Shown one piece after another: positions 22,154 to 52,193 of a stretch of 64,000 nucleotides of DNA; position 1 is the first letter of the stretch, and every line of letters starts with the position of its first letter. A program made the position numbers and the translations under genes. The notes beneath the pieces are model-generated. The model did no database searches and was not told the DNA's origin. It saw nothing but the letters and a program-made list of their open reading frames with translations. Source of the DNA: Anaerolineales bacterium (GTDB taxonomy: Bacteria > Chloroflexota > Anaerolineae > Anaerolineales > UBA11579); NCBI GenBank assembly GCA_026129335.1, contig JAHCIH010000001.1, positions 92,678 to 156,677 of the forward strand, given 5' to 3'.

Positions 22154-22230
22154 TGGTGGGCGCGATAGGACTCGAACCTACGACCTTTGCGATGTCAACG
22201 CAACGCTCTAACCAGCTGAGCTACGCGCCC
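22154..22230 (-). tRNA. tRNA-Val (anticodon GAC), CCA encoded
   Basis: The reverse complement GGGCGCGTAGCTCAGCTGGTTAGAGCGTTGCGTTGACATCGCAAAGGTCGTAGGTTCGAGTCCTATCGCGCCCACCA folds as a cloverleaf. The anticodon loop is TTGACAT and the T-loop is GGTTCGAGTCC. Confidence 0.93.
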
Positions 22231-32726: not shown

Positions 32727-34787
32727 TCAGTCTGTGCAAGCCCGCAAGTCTAGCATGCGGCGGTAGTTAATGCGCGCATTATCCCAAACTTCGGCGAAGG
32801 TGACCACGCACTCATCGTCCAGATGGGACGTTGCCCGAATTTCGGGGTCGAGCTCCTCCCAGACACGGCTGTCTATATAGTAGAAGTCATAGCTAAACAG
32901 CTTTAGTTCCTGGAGAGTAGGCTGTTCGATAAACCGATGGTAGATATCATCGAGCGGTGGTTCGCCCTGCACAACAGAGGTCAATTGCCCACTGAGAATC
33001 GTTGTGCTCCCGAGCGGCCCCATCACGTGGGCGTCGCGCGGCAGCTTGCCCCACATCTGGGTGGCGATGAGCGAGTCAAGCTGGTTGAAATTCTCGCCCA
33101 GCCGCGTGGTGCTGGTTGCCGAGAACTGCGTGCCGGCGATCATCAGCCCGCTGAACGAGGTCAGCGCCAGGGCGCCCACCGCGGCCGGGCGCAGCCAACC
33201 TGGCCAGCGGAAGTTGCGGTCGGCGATCACCAGAGGCAGCAGCAGCGTCCAGGCGAGCATCGCCTGCCAGGTGAGCCGTGAAATGTCGCGGTCGGATTGG
33301 TATTGGAAAAAGATGGGGATGGTGAAGCCAAGCCAGGCGGCGCAAGTCAACACGCCGAGCAGCCAGTCGCCTGCTTTTGCGCGATGCCAAGCCCAACGTG
33401 TAATCCAGGGTGTGAAAAGGAAGACAGGCCCCAGTTCAAAAAGGGCGACGATCAACTGAACAGGGGAAAAGAGACTGAGCGGGCCAAGGTGGGCGGAAAC
33501 GATCGCCAAAGGCCACCGCAGGCTAAACCCGAAAAATTGGCTGCTGGCTGCAGTCCCGGCTATTGGCAGCGTACTCGAGACGCCCAGGCCGAGGCTTTGC
33601 AGAAGCCCGGGACCTTCATAACCGAAAAGGAACTCACGCAGCAACTCGGTGATCGTGCCGCCTTGGAATAAGACCAAGACCGCAGAGGCAACCCCGGCGG
33701 CCAGTCCCCAACGCAGCTGAGGCAGGGCGAGGTTGCGCTGCTGGACGAAGAAGATGGCGGCGAAGCCGAACAACCCGAGCATGAAGAGGCCGTAGGTGGC
33801 CTCCCAGGCCAGCGCCCAAGCCGCCAGCACTACGGCCAGCAAGGCAGCAGACCCAATCTTGCGCAGGTTGGGCGCCAGCAGCCAGACCAGCAGGAAGATC
33901 AGCACGGAAAACGTATTCGGCCCTTGGTGGGCCATGACGAGCGGATCCATAATGCCGTTGAGGAAGCCGAAGATGTAATCCATCGGCGGGCCGCCATCCA
34001 CCAGCCAAGGGGAAACCAACGCTTCGGAGAAGGGTTTGTTGATCAGCGCACTGGTGCCTTGCAGCTGCACTTCGCTGTCTGCGCGGAGCAGGAAACCGGG
34101 CGGCAGAATCAGCAGCAGATAGCGCGTGCCGGCGGCTAAAGCCACCAGGGCGGGGATAGCCCAGGCGCCCCAGGCCCGACCGATGTAGCGGCACCCCACC
34201 AGGGCGGCTAGCAGCAACGTAATCGCCCACAGGAAAGATTTGGAGAGATCGAAGGCGCTCCAGGGCAGCATGCCGCCCAGCTGCATCAGGCTGCCGCCCA
34301 CGATGTGAAAGCCATAGTGGTAAGCAAACTTGCGCACATACCCGGGCAGGTATTCCGGCGGGATGTTGCCGTTGCCGATGATTGATATCAGCGAGAGATT
34401 CTTGTGCTCATCGAATAGAGTCAGCCCTTTGCTCCACAACATAAAGAGATAAAACAGGGCAAAACCGACTACCAGCCAGGGCCAGATGCGCAGGTCGGCG
34501 GGATCCAGCCAGCGGTCCGCCCCGCTGCGCCAAGCGACCAGCGCGGCCACGACCAGCAGCAGCACGGCTGGCAGGCTGAAGGCCAACTCGGGCGCCAGCC
34601 AGCGGCCGAACAGGTTCACCAGCCAAACATAGAGCGTGAGGCCCAGCCCCAGCCCGACGATAAGGCGCTCACGGGACTGCAGGCGAAAGGCATGGCTGGC
34701 CAAGAGCCAGCCGGCCAGCCAGACGATCAGCATGACCGCCAGCCAGGGCAGTAAGCTCAGGGGATTGCCGTCTCGATACCAGTACAT
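32727..34787 (-). CDS. large polytopic membrane protein with a C-terminal soluble domain; possible GT-C (ArnT/PMT-like) glycosyltransferase
   Basis: 686 aa with about 16 TM segments. It lies immediately upstream of the polyprenyl-P GT2. Function is inferred from context only. Confidence 0.55.
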   Translation of the reverse strand: MYWYRDGNPLSLLPWLAVMLIVWLAGWLLASHAFRLQSRERLIVGLGLGLTLYVWLVNLFGRWLAPELAFSLPAVLLLVVAALVAWRSGADRWLDPADLRIWPWLVVGFALFYLFMLWSKGLTLFDEHKNLSLISIIGNGNIPPEYLPGYVRKFAYHYGFHIVGGSLMQLGGMLPWSAFDLSKSFLWAITLLLAALVGCRYIGRAWGAWAIPALVALAAGTRYLLLILPPGFLLRADSEVQLQGTSALINKPFSEALVSPWLVDGGPPMDYIFGFLNGIMDPLVMAHQGPNTFSVLIFLLVWLLAPNLRKIGSAALLAVVLAAWALAWEATYGLFMLGLFGFAAIFFVQQRNLALPQLRWGLAAGVASAVLVLFQGGTITELLREFLFGYEGPGLLQSLGLGVSSTLPIAGTAASSQFFGFSLRWPLAIVSAHLGPLSLFSPVQLIVALFELGPVFLFTPWITRWAWHRAKAGDWLLGVLTCAAWLGFTIPIFFQYQSDRDISRLTWQAMLAWTLLLPLVIADRNFRWPGWLRPAAVGALALTSFSGLMIAGTQFSATSTTRLGENFNQLDSLIATQMWGKLPRDAHVMGPLGSTTILSGQLTSVVQGEPPLDDIYHRFIEQPTLQELKLFSYDFYYIDSRVWEELDPEIRATSHLDDECVVTFAEVWDNARINYRRMLDLRACTD

Positions 34788-43280: not shown

Positions 43281-43501
43281 AACAAGATATTAACCGCGAA
43301 AAGGTGATTTCTCCGATGGGGATGAGGGGCCATGATAAAATTTCCTGGTCTTATCCTCGATTGCTCGGCTTTTTGGCCGGGTTCCATTGCTTCATCTCTG
43401 CTGAACTGCATCGCCTGCTCAACGCAGCCCTACGAAACACAATCATGGGCAGGCCGTTATCAGGGGAGCCAACCCGTACTCCACAGCACCAAGGAGGAAA
43501 A

Positions 43502-45175
43502 ATGGCTAACTCAGCCCGAAAACAGAAAACCGTGGTCGCCGGCGCCCTGGGCGAATGCGTGCATGTCGCCGGCGTGTCCAACTTCCTGCGCCTGGCGCAG
43601 CAAGCCGGCTGGCGCACCGTGTTCCTCGGCCCCGCCGTGCCCATTGAGCGCATGCTGGAAGTGGCCCGCAACGAGCAGGCCGACCTGGTCGGCGTGTCCT
43701 ATCGCCTGACTCCGGAGACCGGCGAGCGCCTGCTGGCCGAGTTCGCCGAGGAGGCCGATGAGCTGCACAGCGCCGGGGTGCAGTTCGCCTTCGCCGGCAC
43801 ACCCCCGGTGGTGGAGCGCGCCGACAAGCTCGGCTTCTTCAGCGCCACCTTTGATGGCACCGAGACAATGGATGAGGTACTGGCCTTCTTGCATGGCGAG
43901 CAGGCCGGTCCGGCCAGCGAGGCCGATTTCCCGCAGACGACGGTGGAGCGCATCCAATGGAAAGCGCCCTACCCGCTGATTCGTCATCACTTCGGCCTGC
44001 CGACGATGGAAGAGACGATCAACGGCATCGAGCAAATTGCCGAAGCCCGCGCCCTGGACGTGATTTCCATCGGCACCGACCAGGACGCCCAGGAGAATTT
44101 CTTCCACCCCGAGCGGCAGAACCCGCGCCGCCGCGGGGCCGGCGGCGTGCCGGTGCGCAGCGCCGACGATTTCAGCGTCCTGTACCAGGCCAGCCGGCAA
44201 GGCAACTTTCCGCTGCTGCGCACCTACACTGGCACGGACGACTTCATCCAACTGGCCGAGATGTTCGTGGAGACCATCCACATGGCCTGGGCAGCCATCC
44301 CGCTGTTCTGGTTCAACAAAATGGACGGGCGCGGCCCTTGGGATTTGCAAGGCTCGCTGCGCGAGCACCAGGAGCTGATGGCCTGGTACGGCGAGCGCGA
44401 CATCCCTGTGGAGCTGAACGAAGCGCACCACTGGGGCATGCGTGACGCGCCGGATGTGATTTTCTGCGTGGCGCTGTACCTGGCCGCCTACAACGCCAAG
44501 GCCTACGGCGTGCGCGACCACATCGTGCAGATGATGTTCAACAGCCCGCCAGGCCTCTCCGACACGATGGACCTGGCCAAGATGATGGCCGGGCTGGAAC
44601 TGATTTCCGAGCTGGAAGACAAGAACTTCCGCGTCTGGCGGCAGACGCGCAGCGGCCTGCTCAGCTTTCCGGTGGACATCGACTCCGCCCGCGGCCACCT
44701 GGCCGCCAGCATCTATCTGCAGATGCAGCTCAAGCCGCACATCATCCACATCGTCGGCCATACCGAAGCAGACCACGCCGCCACCGGCGAAGAGATTATC
44801 GCCGCCAGCAAGATGGGCCGCCGGGCCATTGAGAACGCGCTGCGCGGCCTGCCCGATGCCACGCACGACCCTGCCATCGTGGCCCGCCGCGAGGAGCTGG
44901 TCGCCGACGCCCGTTTGCTGCTGGACGCCATCCGCGGCCTGGCCGCGCCGGGCGTGCAAGACCCGCTGGCCGACGCGGCCACCCTTGCCGCGGCAGTGGA
45001 AAGCGGCATCATGGACGCGCCGCAGTTGGGCAACAACCCGCACGGCCGCGGCGAGATCCGCACCACCTTCGACCCCCGTGGGGCCTGCATCAGCGTGGAC
45101 CCCGAAACTGGCAAACCGATCACTGAGAAGCAGCGCCTGAAAGCTGTGGCGCAGAAAGCAAGGAGCGCGCCATGA
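43502..45175 (+). CDS. B12-binding-domain-like protein fused to a large uncharacterised C-terminal domain
   Basis: The N-terminal roughly 130 aa resemble a cobalamin-binding Rossmann domain (VVAGALGECVHVAGVSNFL ... ADLVGVSYRL), but the DxHxxG motif is altered to E-C-V-H-V-A-G. The ATG at 43502 has an AAGGAGGAAAA RBS. Confidence 0.6.
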   Translation: MANSARKQKTVVAGALGECVHVAGVSNFLRLAQQAGWRTVFLGPAVPIERMLEVARNEQADLVGVSYRLTPETGERLLAEFAEEADELHSAGVQFAFAGTPPVVERADKLGFFSATFDGTETMDEVLAFLHGEQAGPASEADFPQTTVERIQWKAPYPLIRHHFGLPTMEETINGIEQIAEARALDVISIGTDQDAQENFFHPERQNPRRRGAGGVPVRSADDFSVLYQASRQGNFPLLRTYTGTDDFIQLAEMFVETIHMAWAAIPLFWFNKMDGRGPWDLQGSLREHQELMAWYGERDIPVELNEAHHWGMRDAPDVIFCVALYLAAYNAKAYGVRDHIVQMMFNSPPGLSDTMDLAKMMAGLELISELEDKNFRVWRQTRSGLLSFPVDIDSARGHLAASIYLQMQLKPHIIHIVGHTEADHAATGEEIIAASKMGRRAIENALRGLPDATHDPAIVARREELVADARLLLDAIRGLAAPGVQDPLADAATLAAAVESGIMDAPQLGNNPHGRGEIRTTFDPRGACISVDPETGKPITEKQRLKAVAQKARSAP

Positions 45176-46354: not shown

Positions 46355-48373
46355 ATGACCCACATCCCTGAACTGCTGGTCAATATTTCGGTGGCGCTGG
46401 GGGCCGCCTTTGTGGGTGGCCTGATCGCCCGCCGCCTGGGCCTGCCCGCCATCCTCGGCTATCTGCTGGCCGGCATCGCCATCGGCCCGTTCACCCCCGG
46501 TTTCGCCGGGGATACTCAAACCATTCTTGACCTGGCCGAACTGGGCGTCATCTTCCTGATGTTCGGAGTGGGCCTGCATTTCTCCTTCGCCGACCTGTGG
46601 CGGGTGCGCAGCATCGCCGTGCCCGGGGCCATCGGCCAATTGCTGCTGGCCACCCTGATCGGCTTCGTGCTCAGCCAATATTGGGGGCTCTCGGTGAGCT
46701 CCAGCATCGTAATTGGCCTGGCCATCTCGATCGCCAGCACGGTGGTCTTGCTGCGCAACCTGATGGACCGCAACCTGCTGAACACGCACAGCGGCCAGGT
46801 GGCGGTGGGTTGGCTGGTGATGGAAGACCTGGCCACCATTCTGATCCTGATCCTCATGCCCGCCCTGGCGGTGCAAAGCGGCCGGTTTGAATGGAGCCAG
46901 CTGTTCTTCACCCTCTTCAAGGCCGGCATCTTCGTGGCGCTGATGTTTTTAGTGGGCAAGCATTTCTTCCCCTGGCTGCTCAACCTCATCGCCCACACCC
47001 GCTCGCGCGAACTGTTCATCCTGGCGGTGTTGTTCATCTCGCTGGGCACCGCGCTGGGCGCCGCCGAGTTGTTCGGCGTCTCGCTGGCGCTGGGCGCCTT
47101 TGCAGCCGGGGCGATCGTCAGCGAGTCGCCGCAGAGCTACCAGGTGGGCGCGGACGTGCTGCCGTTTCAGGAGGCCTTTGCGGTGGTCTTCTTCGTCTCC
47201 GTCGGCATGCTGGTCAACCCGTCTTTCCTGTTCGCCAACCTGGGCAAGGTCGTCGCCCTGACCTTGCTGGTGGTCTTCGGCAAAGCGATCATCACGCTCG
47301 GGCTCGGCACTTTGATCCGCGGGCCGGCCACAGCGTTCCTGGTGGTCGCCGCAGGGCTGAGCCAGATCGGCGAGTTCTCGTTCATCGTGGGCCAGGCCGG
47401 GCTGCAGCTCGGCCTGCTGAGTTCGAACAACTATTCGCTGATCCTGGCTGCGGCGCTGGTCTCGATCACGGTCAACCCGGCCCTGTTCAGCGCGATCACG
47501 CCGGTGGAAAAATGGCTGCGCGGCATCCCCTGGTTTTGGAAGCGCCTGGACCAGCAGCCAGTGGTCGAGCATCCCGTTGAATTGAAAGAAGATGCCGCCC
47601 CGGTGGTGGTCGTCGGTTACGGCCGGGTGGGCAAGCACCTGTTGCGTGTGTTGAAGCGCCTGGACATCCCGGTGTTGATCATCGAGTCCGATGCCGAAGT
47701 GGTCGGCGAGTTGAATGAGATGGGCATCCCCACCATCTACGGCGACGCGGCCAATTCCGAAGTACTCCTGCACGCCGGCCTGAAGAAGGCCAAGGCGATG
47801 GTGGTGACCCTGCCTGAAGAGGCGGCCACCGAGATCATCGTGGCCACCGCCCACCGCGCCAACCCGGCGCTGCCGATCATCGCCCGCGCGGCCACCGCCG
47901 AGAACATTGAGCAGTTGGCCAGGCTCGGCGCCAAGCACGTCATCCAGCCGGAGTTGGAGGGCGGGCTGGAGATGGTCAGCCACACGCTGCTCGAGCTGGG
48001 CCTGCCGCGCCGCGAGGTGGATACCTACGCCGCCGAAGTGCGCAACAAGCACTACGAGTTCGAAGAAGGCCGCCGCGCCCATTTGTTGATGCGCAACCTG
48101 TTGCGTGCTGCGGATGAGATGGAGATCACCTGGTACGAGGTGGGCAAGAACAACTGGATCGCCGGCCGCAGTCTGGCGGAAAGCGACCTGCGCGGCCGCA
48201 CCGGCGCTTCGGTGGTAGCGATCATCCGGGACGGCAAGCTGATCCCCAATCCCAAGTCGACCACGGTGTTCACCGCCGGTGACCGCATCGGCGCTATCGG
48301 CGAGGAGGGGCAGTTGGAAGCTTTACAGGAGATGCTGGATAAGGCGGGGGCGGGCAGCAAGGCCAGGAAGTAA
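46355..48373 (+). CDS. monovalent cation:proton antiporter-2 (Kef/YbaL type) with C-terminal TrkA-N and TrkA-C (RCK) domains
   Basis: Has about 12 TM segments, then VVVVGYGRVGKHL (an RCK Rossmann motif), and a TrkA-C-like tail. Confidence 0.88.
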   Translation: MTHIPELLVNISVALGAAFVGGLIARRLGLPAILGYLLAGIAIGPFTPGFAGDTQTILDLAELGVIFLMFGVGLHFSFADLWRVRSIAVPGAIGQLLLATLIGFVLSQYWGLSVSSSIVIGLAISIASTVVLLRNLMDRNLLNTHSGQVAVGWLVMEDLATILILILMPALAVQSGRFEWSQLFFTLFKAGIFVALMFLVGKHFFPWLLNLIAHTRSRELFILAVLFISLGTALGAAELFGVSLALGAFAAGAIVSESPQSYQVGADVLPFQEAFAVVFFVSVGMLVNPSFLFANLGKVVALTLLVVFGKAIITLGLGTLIRGPATAFLVVAAGLSQIGEFSFIVGQAGLQLGLLSSNNYSLILAAALVSITVNPALFSAITPVEKWLRGIPWFWKRLDQQPVVEHPVELKEDAAPVVVVGYGRVGKHLLRVLKRLDIPVLIIESDAEVVGELNEMGIPTIYGDAANSEVLLHAGLKKAKAMVVTLPEEAATEIIVATAHRANPALPIIARAATAENIEQLARLGAKHVIQPELEGGLEMVSHTLLELGLPRREVDTYAAEVRNKHYEFEEGRRAHLLMRNLLRAADEMEITWYEVGKNNWIAGRSLAESDLRGRTGASVVAIIRDGKLIPNPKSTTVFTAGDRIGAIGEEGQLEALQEMLDKAGAGSKARK

Positions 48374-48423
48374 GCGCGGTAGTTGGGGCCTGCTGCAATA
48401 GTTATCTAATTTATCGTTACAGG

Positions 48424-48510
48424 GATTCTTCGTCGGGCCTGCGGCCCTCCGTCGGAATGACAAACAATAACGTGTCATTCCGAACGAGCCGAGTTGCGGC
48501 GAGCAGGAAA
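48424..48510. repeat. two inverted, degenerate family-2-like repeat units (GTCATTCCGA... variant); a further fragment lies at 48551..48569
   Basis: GATTCTTCGTCGGGCCTGCGGCCCTCCGTCGGAATGACA, a 12-nt spacer, then GTCATTCCGAACGAGCCGAGTTGCGGCGAGCAGGAAA. TCGGAATGAC and GTCATTCCGA form a 10-bp inverted repeat. Confidence 0.6.
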
Positions 48511-48591
48511 CCCTTCCGCCCTTTGGTCGAATCTTATCTGCAGGTGGTGGTATTTCTTCCGAAATGACAACTGGCGGCTGAAGGCTGACGG

Positions 48592-49479
48592 CTAGCTCCT
48601 GCCCATCTCCTCACGCACCGTCTGGTACAGGTTCTCGGCGCGCAGTTCGCTGAGCGTATAGCAGGGCGCATTTAGGTGCTCGGCCAGCTGGTTGGCCAGG
48701 CCCTGGTCGAAGGCGGCGTGCTCCATGTTGATCACCACACTGCGGATCTCGTCTTTGGCGATCTTCTCGGCCAGGCGGTGGGCTTCCTTCTGCGGAGCGC
48801 CCTCGCCGAGGGGCACGTTGCCGGCGCCGTCGGTGAGCAGGATGAGCAGCGGCATCACGTCCGGGTGCAGGCGGCGCTCGCGGGTGAGCACCTCGTGAGC
48901 CAGCAGCAGGCCGGCGGAGAGCGGCGTCTTGCCGCCCACGGGGATGTCGGCCAGGGCGCGCTGGGCCAGTTGCACTGAATTGGTCGGCGGCAGGACCAGG
49001 TTGGCGCGGTCCTTCTGGAAAACGATCAGGCCCACGCGGTCGCGGCGCTGGTAGGCATCGGTGAGCAGCGAGAGGATCGCGCCTTTGGTGGCGGCCATGC
49101 GTTCGGCCACCGCCATCGACCACGAGGCATCCACCACGAAAAGCACCAGGTTGGCGGCGCGCTTGACGCGCACCTTACGCTGCAGATCCTGGCGCTGGAT
49201 GGCGAAGGCCATCTCCTTGCGCTGCTCCTCGCGGGCCTGCTGGTGCGGCGCCGCGGCGCGGAAGGTGGCATCGAAGGCGATGTCGCTCAGGTCGCTGCCC
49301 GCCGGGCGCGCCTGGATGTAGCGGCCGCGCTTGCGCTCCGTGTGGGTGCGCGAACGCCGCCCGCTGTGGCGGCGGGTGATCTTGTCCAGCGGGTTGTCCA
49401 GTTTGCGGGGGGCGAAAGGCTGGCTGGCCTGCACCTGCTGGCCGCCGTCCCACCAGCGCGCATCGTTGCCGCCGAACAC
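48592..49479 (-). CDS. BchD/ChlD-type C-terminal region (VWA/MIDAS domain) of a chelatase medium subunit, probably expressed only as a -1 frameshift fusion with the upstream ChlI-like ORF
   Basis: Has VLFVVDASWSM (MIDAS), RDRVGLIVF and GGKTPLSAGL. The conventional ORF starts at the GTG at 49479 with no SD. The same frame is open upstream to 49611 with no start codon and passes through the A10 run at 49546..49555. Confidence 0.75.
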   Translation of the reverse strand: MFGGNDARWWDGGQQVQASQPFAPRKLDNPLDKITRRHSGRRSRTHTERKRGRYIQARPAGSDLSDIAFDATFRAAAPHQQAREEQRKEMAFAIQRQDLQRKVRVKRAANLVLFVVDASWSMAVAERMAATKGAILSLLTDAYQRRDRVGLIVFQKDRANLVLPPTNSVQLAQRALADIPVGGKTPLSAGLLLAHEVLTRERRLHPDVMPLLILLTDGAGNVPLGEGAPQKEAHRLAEKIAKDEIRSVVINMEHAAFDQGLANQLAEHLNAPCYTLSELRAENLYQTVREEMGRS

Positions 49480-49541
49480 ATCTTGCGGCCCGGGTTCCGG
49501 GCTGCGCTCCGTGGGTTCGGCTTCGCTAGGTTGCGGCTGAT

Positions 49542-50651
49542 CTACTTTTTTTTTTGCGGTTCCTGGCTGTCGGCCGGCTCGTCTTCTTCGCCCTGGGCGT
49601 TCATTTCCGCTTCAGTGGCGGCATCTTTCTGCACTTCGGCGATGCGCTCCTGCAGCTCGGTGACGCTCATCTCTGTCTGGTGGAAGGGGCCGCGCTTGAT
49701 GCGGTGCGGCAGGGCCAGCTCGGCGGCGATGGCGATGTCCAGGTCGCTGATCCCCTTGCGCTGGTCGAAGGCGGCCTGGGCGCGGGCGGTCTTGAGGATC
49801 ACCAAGTCGGCGCGGTGGCCGTCCACTTGCAGCGAGCTGGTCAGCGCGGCGATGGAGATCAGGTCGCGCGAGGTGTAATCTACTTTGTCGACCAGTTCGC
49901 GCGCCGCCATGATCTTTTCGGCGAGTTCCTGCTCTTTGGGCTGCCATTCGGCATAGAAAGCCTCGGGGTTGCCCTCGAAGGCCAGGTTGCGCTGCATGAT
50001 CTGCACGCGCTGGCGGGCGTCGCGGATGCCGTGCATTTCCACCGCCAGGGCGAAACGGTCGAGCAGCTGCGGGCGCAGGTCGCCTTCCTCGGGGTTCATC
50101 GTGCCGATGAGGATGAAGCGCGCCGGGTGAACGAAGGAAATGCCCTCGCGCTCCACAGTGTTCACGCCCATCGCCGCCGAGTCGAGCAGCAGGTCGACGA
50201 CGTGGTCGTCGAGCAGGTTGACTTCGTCGATGTAGAGCAGGCCGCGGTTGGCCGCGGCCAACACGCCGGGTTCAAAGCGGCGTTCGCCTTTTTGAATGGC
50301 GCGCTCAATATCCAGCGTGCCCACCACGCGGTCTTCGGTGGCGCTGACCGGCAGGTCAATGAAGCCGATCTTGCGCTGGGTTACGTTCAGCTCTTCGCCG
50401 GCTGCTTTGCGCTCCTTGACCCAGTCGGACCAGGTTTCGGGGCTGTTGGGGTCGTCGTTGAAGGGCGAATCGGCGAAAACTTCGATCTCGGGCAGCAGCG
50501 CAGCCATGGCGCGCGCCGCGGTGGACTTGGCCGTGCCGCGCTCGCCGCGGATGAGCACGCCGCCGATGCGCTGGTCCACGGCGTTGAGCAGCAACGCTCG
50601 CTTCATGCGTTCCTGGCCGACAATGGCGGTGAAAGGGTAAATGTTTCGCAT
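49542..50651 (-). CDS. ChlI/BchI-like AAA+ chelatase small subunit
   Basis: YPFTAIVGQERMKRALLLNAV, Walker A GERGTAKST, Walker B LLYIDEVNLL, and sensor/arginine-finger regions. The start is ATG 50651 or TTG 50675. Confidence 0.88.
   Translation of the reverse strand: MRNIYPFTAIVGQERMKRALLLNAVDQRIGGVLIRGERGTAKSTAARAMAALLPEIEVFADSPFNDDPNSPETWSDWVKERKAAGEELNVTQRKIGFIDLPVSATEDRVVGTLDIERAIQKGERRFEPGVLAAANRGLLYIDEVNLLDDHVVDLLLDSAAMGVNTVEREGISFVHPARFILIGTMNPEEGDLRPQLLDRFALAVEMHGIRDARQRVQIMQRNLAFEGNPEAFYAEWQPKEQELAEKIMAARELVDKVDYTSRDLISIAALTSSLQVDGHRADLVILKTARAQAAFDQRKGISDLDIAIAAELALPHRIKRGPFHQTEMSVTELQERIAEVQKDAATEAEMNAQGEEDEPADSQEPQKKK
49545..49555 (-). other. candidate recoding site: A10 run containing the -1 slippery heptamer A_AAA_AAG immediately before the TAG stop
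   Basis: The minus strand reads CCG CAA AAA AAA AAG TAG in the zero frame. The -1 frame continues GTA GAT CAG CCG CAA CCT ... into the VWA ORF. Confidence 0.6.
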
Positions 50652-50756
50652 GGGTTTCTGTGCGCTAGGGCGCAAGAGGCAATCTTATCACAAGGGAGAT
50701 TCTCATTTTTAAGCGGTTATAATAGCCGCCATCTTCGGACTGGAGTTAATAGTTTA

Positions 50757-52193
50757 ATGGAGCAAAACGACATCCCCCAGGAGGGGGGACCGGCCAACGC
50801 GAACGAAATCGAGGCGTCCGGGCCGGCAAATGAACTAACCATGGAGCAATTATTGGAGCAGGGGGATCTGAACCTGGATTTGCCCAAGGCTGGCGATATG
50901 GTCACCGGCGTGATCGCCGGGATAACCAACGACGAAATTATGGTGAGCATCGGCGCCAAATCAGAAGGCGTCATCCCTTCGCGCGAAGTGCAGCAACTCA
51001 GCCCGGAAGAGCGTGAGAAGTTGCAGGTCGGCGAGGATATCCAGGTCTATGTGGTCAGCTCAGATCTGAGCCGCGGCGCCATGCAGCTTTCCTATACCCG
51101 CTCAATGGAAGACGACGATTGGGCCCAGGCCGAGGAACTGCTTAAATCCAAAGACACCTATGAGGGCGAGGTCATCGGCCACAACAAGGGCGGGCTGATC
51201 GTGCGCGTGGGCCGCCTGCGCGGCTTTGTGCCCGCCTCGCAGATCAGCCAGGTGCGCCGCATGCGCTACCAGGGCGATACGCCCGAGCAGCGCTGGGGCG
51301 AGATGGTCGGCGAGACCCTGGTGGGTCGCGTGATCGAAGTGGACCGTGAGCGTCGCCGGCTGATCCTTTCCGAGCGCGCCGCGGCGCAGGAAACCCGCGA
51401 GGCCTTGAAAGACCGCCTGCTCTCCGAGATCAAGGTGGGCGACACCCGCAAGGGCCGCGTCACCAGCATCGCCGACTTCGGCGCCTTCGTGAACATCAGC
51501 GGCGCCGACGGCCTGGTGCACCTCTCCGAACTGTCTTGGGAACGCGTGGACCATCCCGGCAAACTGCTCAAGGTGGGCGACGAGGTTGAAGTCAAGGTGA
51601 TCAACATCGACCAGGACCGCAAGCGCATCGGCCTTTCCATGCGCCAGCTGCAGTCCGACCCCTGGGACAAGCACGTCAACGAATACAAAGAAGGCCAGTT
51701 GGTGCAGGGCACCATCACCCGCCTGGTCAAGTTCGGCGCCTTTGCCCGCTTGGACGACTACGTGGAAGGCCTGATCCACATCTCCGAGCTCAGCGAAGAC
51801 CGCATCGAGCATCCCAAAGAAGTCGTCAAAGAAGGCGACCCGGTGACCCTGCGCATCATCCGCATCGAAGCGGACAAGCGCCGCATCGGCCTCTCGCTGC
51901 GCAAGGTGCACTCGGCGCAGTACAGCGACCAGGACTACGAAGCCGCCCTGGCCGAAGCCGGCCTGGACGCGGACGCCGGCAGCCCGGCGGCGGAAGCCGC
52001 GCCGGAGGCTGAGATGGAAACCCCTGCCGAGGAGCCCGCTGCGGAAGCGCCCGCTGAGGACAGCAGCCAGGACGCTGAGCCGCCGGCAGAAGAAGCTGCC
52101 GCCGAAGAGCCCGCTGCCGAAGCCGAGCCGGAGAACGAAGAGGCTGCCGCAGAGGAAGTGCCTGTCGAGAGCGAAGAGCCTTCCGGCGAGTAA
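50757..52193 (+). CDS. rpsA: 30S ribosomal protein S1 with a long acidic Ala/Glu/Pro-rich C-terminal tail
   Basis: Four S1 (OB) repeats, each with the G-x-V...GxxGxxxxS/E pattern (for example [27 protein letters not shown]). The track ORF 49554..52193 is chimeric with antisense chlI, so I chose the ATG at 50757. Confidence 0.88.

Follow-up and report, generated by a model that had tools for sequence, protein, structure and literature searches.

The minus strand of this stretch carries a ChlI-like AAA+ open reading frame (ORF) that runs into an overlapping, VWA-encoding ORF in the -1 frame, which raises the question of whether the pair represents two genes, a broken gene, or a single gene decoded in two ways. 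The initial annotation had favoured the last of these, with two chelatase subunits produced from one locus by a -1 shift in a run of ten A residues, and had suspected that the principle was already known. Both ideas held up. The locus is a member of the published fs-chlD or "magnesium chelatase" recoding family, a real and already known phenomenon (PMC3711429, PMC9227772), and the two-subunit reading is supported by the match to the profile TIGR02442, by comparative evidence, and by published work (PMC3711429, PMC5009743, PMC9227772). We consider it very probable that the locus is one gene, an orthologue of fs-chlD, decoded in two ways through a -1 slip in the A10 run.

The fs-chlD cluster of -1 frameshift genes was described by Antonov 2013 (PMC3711429), Atkins 2016 (PMC5009743) and Kuznetsov 2022 (PMC9227772); the last of these reports fs-chlD in Anaerolineae and cites a further study on fs-chlD, Antonov 2020 (doi 10.1093/molbev/msaa081). 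Within the Chloroflexi, the published set includes Herpetosiphon, Anaerolinea thermophila, Ornatilinea, Longilinea, Levilinea and Brevefilum.

Layout of the overlapping frames

The window, i.e. the whole stretch of 64,000 nucleotides that was analysed, contains the following features at this locus.

50651..49542, minus strand: zero-frame ChlI-like ORF, from ATG 50651 to TAG 49544..49542; 369 aa, the product of standard decoding
50546..50523, minus strand: Walker A motif GERGTAKS of the ChlI-like AAA+ part
50240..50211, minus strand: Walker B motif LLYIDEVNLL of the ChlI-like AAA+ part
50096..50052, minus strand: Arg-finger region NPEEGDLRPQLLDRF of the ChlI-like AAA+ part
49564..49561, minus strand: AGGA, a Shine-Dalgarno-like (SD-like) tetramer 9 nt before the heptamer; candidate upstream stimulator
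49546..49555, minus strand: A10 run, the putative recoding site as read from the sequence
49551..49545, minus strand: slippery heptamer A_AAA_AAG, in the zero-frame phase (X_XXY_YYZ)
49544..49542, minus strand: zero-frame TAG, directly abutting the heptamer; predicted to terminate the small subunit
48592..49545, minus strand: -1 frame continuation, 317 aa plus stop; Pro/Glu-rich linker, then VWA domain
49494..49474, minus strand: conserved motif PGPQDVF of the -1 frame part
49477..49479, minus strand: GTG, the one codon from which a separate VWA protein could start; judged unused
49458..49441, minus strand: conserved motif RWWDGG of the -1 frame part
49131..49117, minus strand: MIDAS motif DASWS (DxSxS) of the VWA domain

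The positions first reported for the end of the ORF, the A10 run, the heptamer, the opening of the -1 frame and the gap without start codons were all confirmed to the base. The mechanical ORF list starts the ChlI-like ORF at TTG 50675, and ATG 50651 is used here; its last codons are CCG CAA AAA AAA AAG TAG. The -1 frame is bounded by TGA 49614..49612 and stays open from 49611 to TAG 48594..48592, and the two ORFs overlap at 49611..49542 with the slippery site inside the overlap. The A10 run is the single homopolymer of at least 8 nt in the 64-kb window, which has a G+C content of 64%. From base composition only about 0.004 A10/T10 runs are expected in a window of this length, and the run is thus far beyond chance. 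In the genes of the window, AAG is the preferred lysine codon (166 against 79 occurrences).

This arrangement corresponds to that of fs-chlD genes, in which a ChlI-like ORF is followed by an overlapping -1 ORF with the ChlD linker and VWA/MIDAS region, an A_AAA_AAR or poly-A site lies in the zero-frame phase inside the overlap, and the small and medium subunits come from one gene that is commonly annotated as two adjacent genes. We found no essential difference from these genes; the particular features here are that the run is A10 followed by G, that it abuts the TAG, and that no downstream hairpin is evident.

Predicted products and their family matches

Standard decoding would halt at TAG 49544..49542 and release a 369-aa ChlI-like AAA+ ATPase, the putative small subunit. 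In a fraction of cases, decoding would slip one base back within the A10 run and read on in the -1 frame, first through a Pro-rich acidic linker and then through the VWA/MIDAS region. The outcome would be a ChlD-like medium subunit of 686 aa, identical to the small subunit over its first 369 residues. The computed length is close to the roughly 690 aa estimated earlier. The product of the -1 slip reads ...EPQKKK-VDQPQPSEAEPTERSPEPGPQDVFGGND..., and the fusion-spanning peptide would be ...KKK-VDQPQPSEAEPTER.

Profile searches agree with the architecture that had been suggested for the fusion, namely an AAA+ module, an acidic/Pro linker and a VWA domain with a DASWS MIDAS motif. Pfam assigns Mg_chelatase, AAA_5 and AAA_lid_2 to the N-terminal part, and VWA and VWA_2 to the C-terminal part. 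Residues 2-328 of the N-terminal part align with the solved ChlI/BchI structures 8OSF, 6L8D and 1G8P (E values as low as 1e-106). The VWA domain in turn can be aligned with the integrin-I domain of BchD in 2X31. In the profile HMM alignment across the junction, the 686-aa fusion matches NCBIfam TIGR02442 ("putative cobaltochelatase") as one chain, covering profile positions 1-640 of 641, and neither half by itself covers the profile. The score of the fusion is 775.8 bits against a cut-off of 779.45, i.e. 3.7 bits under it. The matches to the BchI/ChlI small subunit (TIGR02030, 409.7 against an equivalog cut-off of 466.95) and to the BchD/ChlD medium subunit (TIGR02031, 441.5 against an equivalog cut-off of 499.55) are likewise below threshold. 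As judged by sequence comparison, the fold-level kinship of the N-terminal part to BchI/ChlI is clear, and the name "chelatase" is given by homology alone. Thousands of homologues of 665-695 aa exist as a single ORF, with identities of up to 81%.

By analogy with BchI/BchD and CobS/CobT, both products may assemble into an AAA+ motor complex whose subunit ratio would be set by the slip frequency. The locus shares with these systems the AAA+ module, the acidic Pro-rich linker and the VWA domain with its MIDAS; in contrast to BchI/BchD, the AAA+ module of the medium subunit here would be identical to the small subunit and not a diverged copy of it.

Conservation of the split layout and competing explanations

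The layout of the sequence, the extent to which it is conserved and the selective pressure on the -1 frame can be read directly from the relatives. We collected 80 orthologous loci from genomes, using only the N-terminal part as the query to keep the set unbiased, and scored 76 species-representative Chloroflexota genomes; a second set comprised 80 metagenome loci, in which 69 contigs were scored for layout. The VWA part lies in the -1 frame in 72 of the 76 species genomes, and two more (L006 and L080) have the -1 relation at the junction together with extra indels elsewhere, bringing the total to 74/76. Among the metagenome contigs, the -1 layout is present in 60/69, including 48/48 of the closer ones. 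Over 130 related loci thus share it. A run of A7-A10 marks the frame change in 78/80 genome loci, the remaining two contigs stopping short of the junction, and occupies the same position in 66/80 metagenome loci; most loci without the run end ahead of the junction or lack the VWA part. Over the genome loci and the window, A9 is the predominant length (61 cases), followed by A10 and A8 (7 each) and A7 (4). A/T runs of at least 8 nt number 145 at the junctions, compared with 36 in the other ~1.27 Mb of these loci.

In the genome-set orthologues, the run is followed within 1-16 nt by the zero-frame stop, and in many loci a -1-frame stop also precedes the run by 1-5 nt while the zero-frame stop follows it by 2-9 nt (e.g. 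TGAGGAAAAAAAAACTTAA). With stops placed this closely on either side, the shift is possible only inside the run, and the overlap window is often the run alone. The linker flanking the run is otherwise poorly conserved. Across 63 distinct main-clade sequences, the variable positions after the run are only +7, +10, +13, +16 and +19, all of them third positions of the -1 frame. This wobble periodicity indicates that the -1 frame is translated across and past the zero-frame stop. The A run and the -1 relation are therefore conserved under purifying selection, in agreement with the published report of purifying selection on A_AAA_AAR (PMC5009743).

These observations bear on three other explanations. 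The split might be a homopolymer error of sequencing or assembly, the true gene having A11 and being an ordinary single-ORF ChlD-like gene. Such an error would fit the five in-frame relatives that have exactly one A more than their split sisters (L028, L058, L081, L082 and L136), as well as the indels in this gene in the long-read metagenome-assembled genomes (MAGs) L006 and L080. However, the -1 layout recurs at the frequencies given above in independent assemblies from many projects, and the closest relatives (L001, L005 and L087) are all split. One of them, L005, which is 88% identical, reads CAA AAA AAA AAC TAG, with the A10-plus-stop layout of the window. Since the zero-frame stop is also maintained right behind the run, we regard an error as very improbable. 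A decaying pseudogene of a once-fused chlD has the frame break itself as its sole support, and its probability is close to nil: Anaerolineae whose proteins are 55-90% identical break at one and the same site, purifying selection acts on both halves, which are intact, and neither the catalytic motifs nor the MIDAS motif is missing.

Two separate genes are the usual annotation of such pairs (PMC3711429), and translation of the VWA protein would then begin separately, either from GTG 49479 or through re-initiation once the TAG is passed, with no fusion formed. This GTG is the earliest ATG, GTG or TTG in the -1 frame, 66 nt past the run, and in many loci of the main clade an ATG comes 55-58 nt past it. 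Yet, as had been noted before and as we agree, GTG 49479 lacks a Shine-Dalgarno sequence, and it is a Val codon within the conserved P-x-P-Q-[DEN]-[VI]-F motif, where L087 has Ile. According to the peptides and start positions of each locus, the first start codon comes only ~345 nt past the run in L087, ~318 nt in L004 and ~180 nt in L002; in L088, too, it falls within the range of 180-345 nt, and in all four loci it sits in conserved sequence. Moreover, the codon-periodic conservation of the -1 frame begins with the first codon behind the run, and the linker and VWA domain align as a single chain with TIGR02442 and with the thousands of fused proteins, which makes independent genes highly unlikely, even more so than an error. 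Given the conserved -1 layout, the run at the junction and the wobble pattern after the stop, we rejected assembly error, pseudogene and independent VWA initiation, and retained the single gene decoded in two ways.

Route of the proposed slip, neighbourhood and function

We infer that the slip occurs in this organism; its efficiency, the machine that slips and the role of the complex are put forward on the same footing. At the ribosome, two tRNA-Lys would re-pair in tandem in the -1 direction on A_AAA_AAG, and the adjacent stop codon would probably help. Alternatively, RNA polymerase may add one A to the transcript. Both routes lead to the same junction (...QKKKVDQ... / ...QKKKVDQPQPSEAEPTER), so that detecting the junction peptide would establish the fusion without telling ribosome from RNA polymerase, and the sequence data are compatible with either.

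The site had been described as dnaX-type. Like E. coli dnaX (tau/gamma; PMC3711429), the locus has the heptamer A_AAA_AAG and is predicted to encode two AAA+ proteins with a common N-terminal part in a ratio set by the slip; the polarity differs, as the slip gives the short product in dnaX and would give the long product here. Of the dnaX features, the heptamer is the one that clearly applies. E. coli dnaX has an upstream SD and a hairpin 5-6 nt downstream. The CAGGAA element pointed out upstream of the run is present here, with its AGGA 9 nt before the heptamer, but is not maintained in the nearest relatives, as L001 has GAAAGAACCTGT and L005 has AGGA 2 nt before the run; a purine-rich stretch at this place is also expected from the coding of a Glu/Gly-rich acidic linker. 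No convincing hairpin was found 5-9 nt downstream when 65 and 105 nt were folded (z -2.1 and -1.5), and the sole hairpin downstream of the site begins ~38 nt away. The folds of 12 close relatives differ and share no common downstream structure. With weak z-scores and divergent folds, a downstream hairpin was rejected as a stimulator for this subclade. Strong GC hairpins do occur in L042, L057 and L060, unlike the window. Reviews describe downstream structures for Pseudomonas-type genes; they are usual but not universal in the fs-chlD family. A promoter and terminator scan of 48300..51000 gave nothing informative.

A mainly transcriptional origin of the shift, in which stuttering of RNA polymerase on the A10 (T10 in the template) adds one A to a fraction of transcripts, with ribosomal slippage as a minor contribution, would account for several of these features. 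The runs mostly have 9-10 A's, compared with the 6-7 needed for tandem tRNA slippage, and the efficiency of family cassettes in E. coli reporters climbs with run length (63%, 40% and 10% frameshifting for 11, 9 and 7 A's; PMC3711429). The A9 run in Thermus thermophilus dnaX acts by transcriptional slippage (PMC3711429), and the long A run here could likewise act in transcription. The subclade has no conserved downstream RNA structure, and the in-frame relatives also retain the A run, which fits a process that gains or drops a base. On the other side, A_AAA_AAN is in phase in every orthologous run including A7 and A8, although the phase has no power to separate the mechanisms, as a heptamer in phase is inevitable in runs of at least 8, and the A7 runs, few in number, are mutually related. 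In addition, the site has been read as ribosomal frameshifting (PMC5009743, PMC9227772). Taking these points together, we hold a mainly transcriptional shift to be possible but doubtful.

Our search of the neighbourhood for a large chelatase subunit was negative. A Pfam scan of 30 window ORFs (about 25.7-64 kb) showed no cobN/chlH-like gene (PF02514), and no ORF of the whole 64-kb window is as long as 900 aa. By inspection, there was no cobN-like gene among the ORFs of at least 800 aa within 6 kb of the 80 orthologues. The big ORFs near the orthologues, considered as large subunits and rejected, resemble an adhesin-like repeat protein, a SARP-type regulator and a GAF/PP2C sensor; further large neighbours are, by appearance, RpoC, a glycyl-radical enzyme, ClpC and a transposase, and none of them resembles CobN. 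A link to B12, following the Rodionov-type assignment of chlID to cobalt chelatase, was also dropped, as no cobalamin riboswitch was found: across the window and 11 orthologous loci, Rfam matched nothing but tRNA, and around the 5' region of the gene there was no match at E<=1. A further ORF at 50717..50974 (minus strand), conserved-looking in four relatives, is probably spurious, as it appears to lie antisense to the expected 5' part of rpsA. Some published Chloroflexi hosts of fs-chlD lack a gene for the large subunit or the B12/chlorophyll pathways.

In the window and the relatives examined, the vicinity of the gene holds no large subunit of the H/N type, no B12 riboswitch and no tetrapyrrole gene. 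In Anaerolineales the pair might therefore not serve as a tetrapyrrole chelatase motor but be an AAA+/VWA machine that works by itself on an unknown client, and its poly-A run might be a two-way stoichiometry device whose lineages toggle by one A. In the fused alleles the run is retained, and 1-7 codons past it comes a stop in the -1 frame; some in-frame relatives show dnaX-like polarity. We offer this reading as speculation, and rather an unlikely one. If true, the -1 slip would yield the long product in split alleles and, with the polarity of dnaX, the short one in fused alleles.

For annotation, the reading of one gene decoded in two ways means that the locus should be recorded as one recoded gene with two products, neither as two genes nor as a pseudogene, and the same correction is due for well over a hundred Chloroflexota MAG loci. 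No new principle is involved, as programmed -1 recoding of chlD has been published and experimentally tested in other members of the family. The clade can be used to ask if it is the ribosome or RNA polymerase on which long A runs act, and what role a ChlI/ChlD pair plays in anaerobes that seemingly do without a large chelatase subunit.

Reading frames at the junction and their products

The gene lies on the minus strand, where a ChlI-like ORF is continued in the -1 frame by a linker and a ChlD-type VWA region. Its features are as follows:

ATG 50651 to TAG 49544..49542, minus strand: ChlI-like zero-frame ORF, 369 aa, ending CCG CAA AAA AAA AAG TAG
49546..49555, minus strand: A10 run, ten A's
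49551..49545, minus strand: slippery heptamer A_AAA_AAG in the zero-frame X_XXY_YYZ phase, abutted by the stop
49611 to TAG 48594..48592, minus strand: open -1 frame, preceded by TGA 49614..49612
49131..49117, minus strand: MIDAS motif DASWS, within the -1 fusion product

Each of the elements described in the initial annotation (ORF, A10 run, heptamer, abutting stop and open -1 frame) was thus recovered. A mechanical ORF list gave an alternative upstream start, TTG 50675; we took ATG 50651 because homologues start at the Met of MxxIYPFTAIVGQ. A conceptual -1 slip gives a product of 686 aa, close to the ~690 aa first estimated, which reads ...EPQKKK-VDQPQPSEAEPTERSPEPGPQDVFGGNDARWWDGG.... An SD-like element had also been proposed upstream of the run; AGGA is present on the minus strand 9 nt upstream of the heptamer, but is not conserved in the orthologous loci L001 and L005. 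The A10 run is the sole homopolymer of at least 8 across the 64-kb window (64% G+C), for which ~0.004 A10/T10 runs are expected from base composition, and the window's genes prefer AAG for Lys (166:79).

Residues 2-328 of the N part align with the solved ChlI/BchI structures 8OSF, 6L8D and 1G8P (E down to 1e-106) and include a Walker B motif, an Arg-finger region and a sensor region, and the VWA domain of the C part can be aligned to the integrin-I domain of BchD in 2X31. The -1 fusion covers positions 1-640 of 641 of NCBIfam TIGR02442, "putative cobaltochelatase", in agreement with the AAA+/linker/VWA medium-subunit architecture suggested at the outset; its score of 775.8 bits is 3.7 bits under the curated cut-off, and its profile HMM scores lie below both the BchD and BchI equivalog cut-offs. 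This architecture is shared by single-ORF proteins of 665-695 aa, which number in the thousands and reach 81% identity. The Walker A motif, GERGTAKS (50523..50546, minus strand), has Ala in place of the usually invariant Gly of ChlI/BchI (GDRGTGKS), and this Ala is common to the aligned close homologues except the protein P0010.

Conservation of the run and the frame relation

The initial annotation had called for a comparison of orthologous loci. Our genome sample was collected with the N part alone as query, one genome per species, and therefore took no account of the C part's frame. It comprised 80 loci, nearly all from Anaerolineae/Chloroflexota MAGs, the closest being Anaerolineales L001 and L005 (88% identity), which makes an Anaerolineales origin of the window almost certain. 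An A run marks the frame change in 78/80, and the remaining two contigs stop short of the junction. Window included, run lengths were A9 (61), A10 (7), A8 (7) and A7 (4). Every run contains an in-phase A_AAA_AAN, and a zero-frame stop follows 1-16 nt past it; L005 has the same layout as the window (CAA AAA AAA AAC TAG). Among the 76 loci containing both parts, the VWA part is in the -1 frame in 72; L006 and L080 also have the -1 relation at the junction, plus indels elsewhere in the gene, and L028 and L058 are in frame, each with exactly one A more than its sister loci. A further set of 80 metagenome contigs, likewise drawn without regard to frame, gave the -1 layout in 60 of 69 (58 with A7-A10), including 48/48 of the closer contigs. 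L006 and L080 are long-read MAGs by name. The additional frame breaks that they carry within the gene, but not at the A run, probably come from assembly indels, and frame should be called with caution in assemblies of this kind.

Across ~1.27 Mb covering all loci of both samples, 145 A/T runs of at least 8 lie at junctions vs 36 elsewhere. Many genome-set loci have a -1-frame stop 1-5 nt ahead of the run (e.g. TGAGGAAAAAAAAACTTAA, or GAT AAA AAA AAA with TAA in the -1 frame), so in those loci the frames can be joined nowhere but in the run. Among 63 distinct main-clade sequences, variation in the 19 nt that follow the run is essentially confined to +7, +10, +13, +16 and +19, with rare changes at +1, +6 and +8. 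The first five are all third codon positions when the stretch is read in the -1 frame, as N-L-K-L-E-D-E, and third-position variation continues through and beyond the zero-frame TAA. At the level of sequence comparison, this pattern is a direct signature of -1-frame translation of the stretch after the run.

Some relatives have a single in-frame ORF yet keep an A8-A10 run at the same site (L028, L058, L081-L086, L136, L139, L141, L142, L155, L159, L164, L165). Some are plain A(n+1) versions of split sisters; for L139/L141/L142, L155/L159 and L083-86, the in-frame state recurs over several independent contigs. A -1-frame stop lies 1-7 codons past the run in 12/14 of the fused relatives. Their polarity would be dnaX-like, with standard decoding giving the long product and a -1 slip the short ChlI-like one; this merits attention as a side observation.

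Origin of the frame break and route of slippage

The evidence best supports programmed -1 recoding in the A run: standard decoding would yield the small subunit and a -1 slip the medium subunit. Comparative and profile evidence thus supports the original interpretation of one locus with two subunits. An independent start of the VWA protein is rejected. As first noted, GTG 49479 is the first ATG/GTG/TTG in the open -1 frame and lacks an SD, and it is a Val codon within the conserved PxPQ[DEN][VI]F; L087 has Ile there, its first start codon being ~345 nt beyond the run, and the first start codons of L004 (~318 nt), L002 (180 nt) and L088 (183 nt) fall well within conserved sequence. A pseudogene is excluded, since both halves and the shift site are conserved among proteins that are 55-90% identical. 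In-frame A(n+1) alleles do occur (L028, L058, L081, L082, L136), but the split state is the rule among relatives, the nearest included, and a homopolymer miscall in the window's assembly is very improbable.

For programmed recoding, the heptamer and adjoining stop codon are ingredients of a ribosomal route. No downstream hairpin was found at stimulatory distance in the window (folding z-scores -1.5 and -2.1), where the sole one begins ~38 nt away, and no downstream fold was shared by 12 relatives. A9-A10 runs exceed what tandem slippage needs and fall in the polymerase slippage range; RNA-polymerase slippage as the main route is less likely than not. Efficiency in the fs-chlD (frameshifted chlD) family grows with run length (63%, 40% and 10% for 11, 9 and 7 A's), and in Thermus dnaX the slippage on an A9 run is transcriptional (PMC3711429). 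Both routes predict the identical peptide ...QKKKVDQ..., and are therefore not separable here. A strong GC hairpin, GGCGCCCCCGCC-NAC-GGGGGCGCC, lies ~25-30 nt after the run in the L042, L057, L060 subclade only and resembles the purine/pyrimidine-rich stems of Pseudomonas chelatase genes (PMC5009743); no comparable hairpin occurs in the window's own subclade.

Neighbourhood and relation to the fs-chlD family

The gene stands alone, with rpsA and clpC upstream and divergent; the divergent rpsA is kept in 46/80 genome-set loci. Other features of the window are:

46355..48373, plus strand: Kef-type antiporter gene, convergent, facing the stop of the chlD-like gene
43304..45175, plus strand: B12-binding domain protein (PF02310, Pfam), 623 aa
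28762..30771 and 32727..34787, minus strand: large ORFs of 669 and 686 aa, no Pfam match at 1e-5
22157..22230, minus strand: tRNA gene, the only Rfam match in the window at gathering threshold

A nearby large-subunit gene did not appear: the 30 ORFs Pfam-scanned, all from about 25.7-64 kb, include no tetrapyrrole or cobN/chlH genes and represent polysaccharide, tsaB, rimI, radA, infC and similar genes. No ORF of at least 900 aa occurs anywhere in the 64-kb window, inspection of the ORFs of at least 800 aa within 6 kb of the gene showed nothing cobN-like in 80 relatives, and an Rfam search found no cobalamin riboswitch in the window or 11 relatives. Since large subunit, tetrapyrrole genes and riboswitch are absent nearby, it is from homology that we infer a chelatase role for the products. 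The PF02310 protein, the only cobalamin-related one among the scanned ORFs, would use B12, not make it. The 669- and 686-aa ORFs sit inside a polysaccharide-biosynthesis cluster (about 25.7-40.6 kb) that also has glycosyltransferases, a flippase, GDP-mannose dehydratase-like enzymes, UDP-glucose dehydrogenase and asparagine synthase.

Antonov et al. 2013 described 23 fs-genes with a -1 shift, Herpetosiphon among them. These carry the annotation of a pair of adjacent genes, fused homologues exist in other Chloroflexi, and reporter assays validated the shift (PMC3711429). Purifying selection on A_AAA_AAR was reported by Atkins et al. 2016 (PMC5009743); according to Antonov 2020, as cited in PMC9227772, a single chlD yields two subunits of cobalt chelatase. 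Kuznetsov et al. 2022 listed fs-chlD in Anaerolinea, Ornatilinea, Longilinea, Levilinea and Brevefilum; some Chloroflexi that carry it have neither a large subunit nor B12/chlorophyll pathways, its function there being unknown (PMC9227772). As the initial annotation suggested, frameshift-dependent chlD genes yielding two subunits had already been reported (PMC3711429, PMC9227772). The window gene is an orthologue sharing class and signal with these genes, and is thus a member of this published fs-chlD/"magnesium chelatase" recoding family. The finding is real but already known; its remaining value is correct annotation of the locus.
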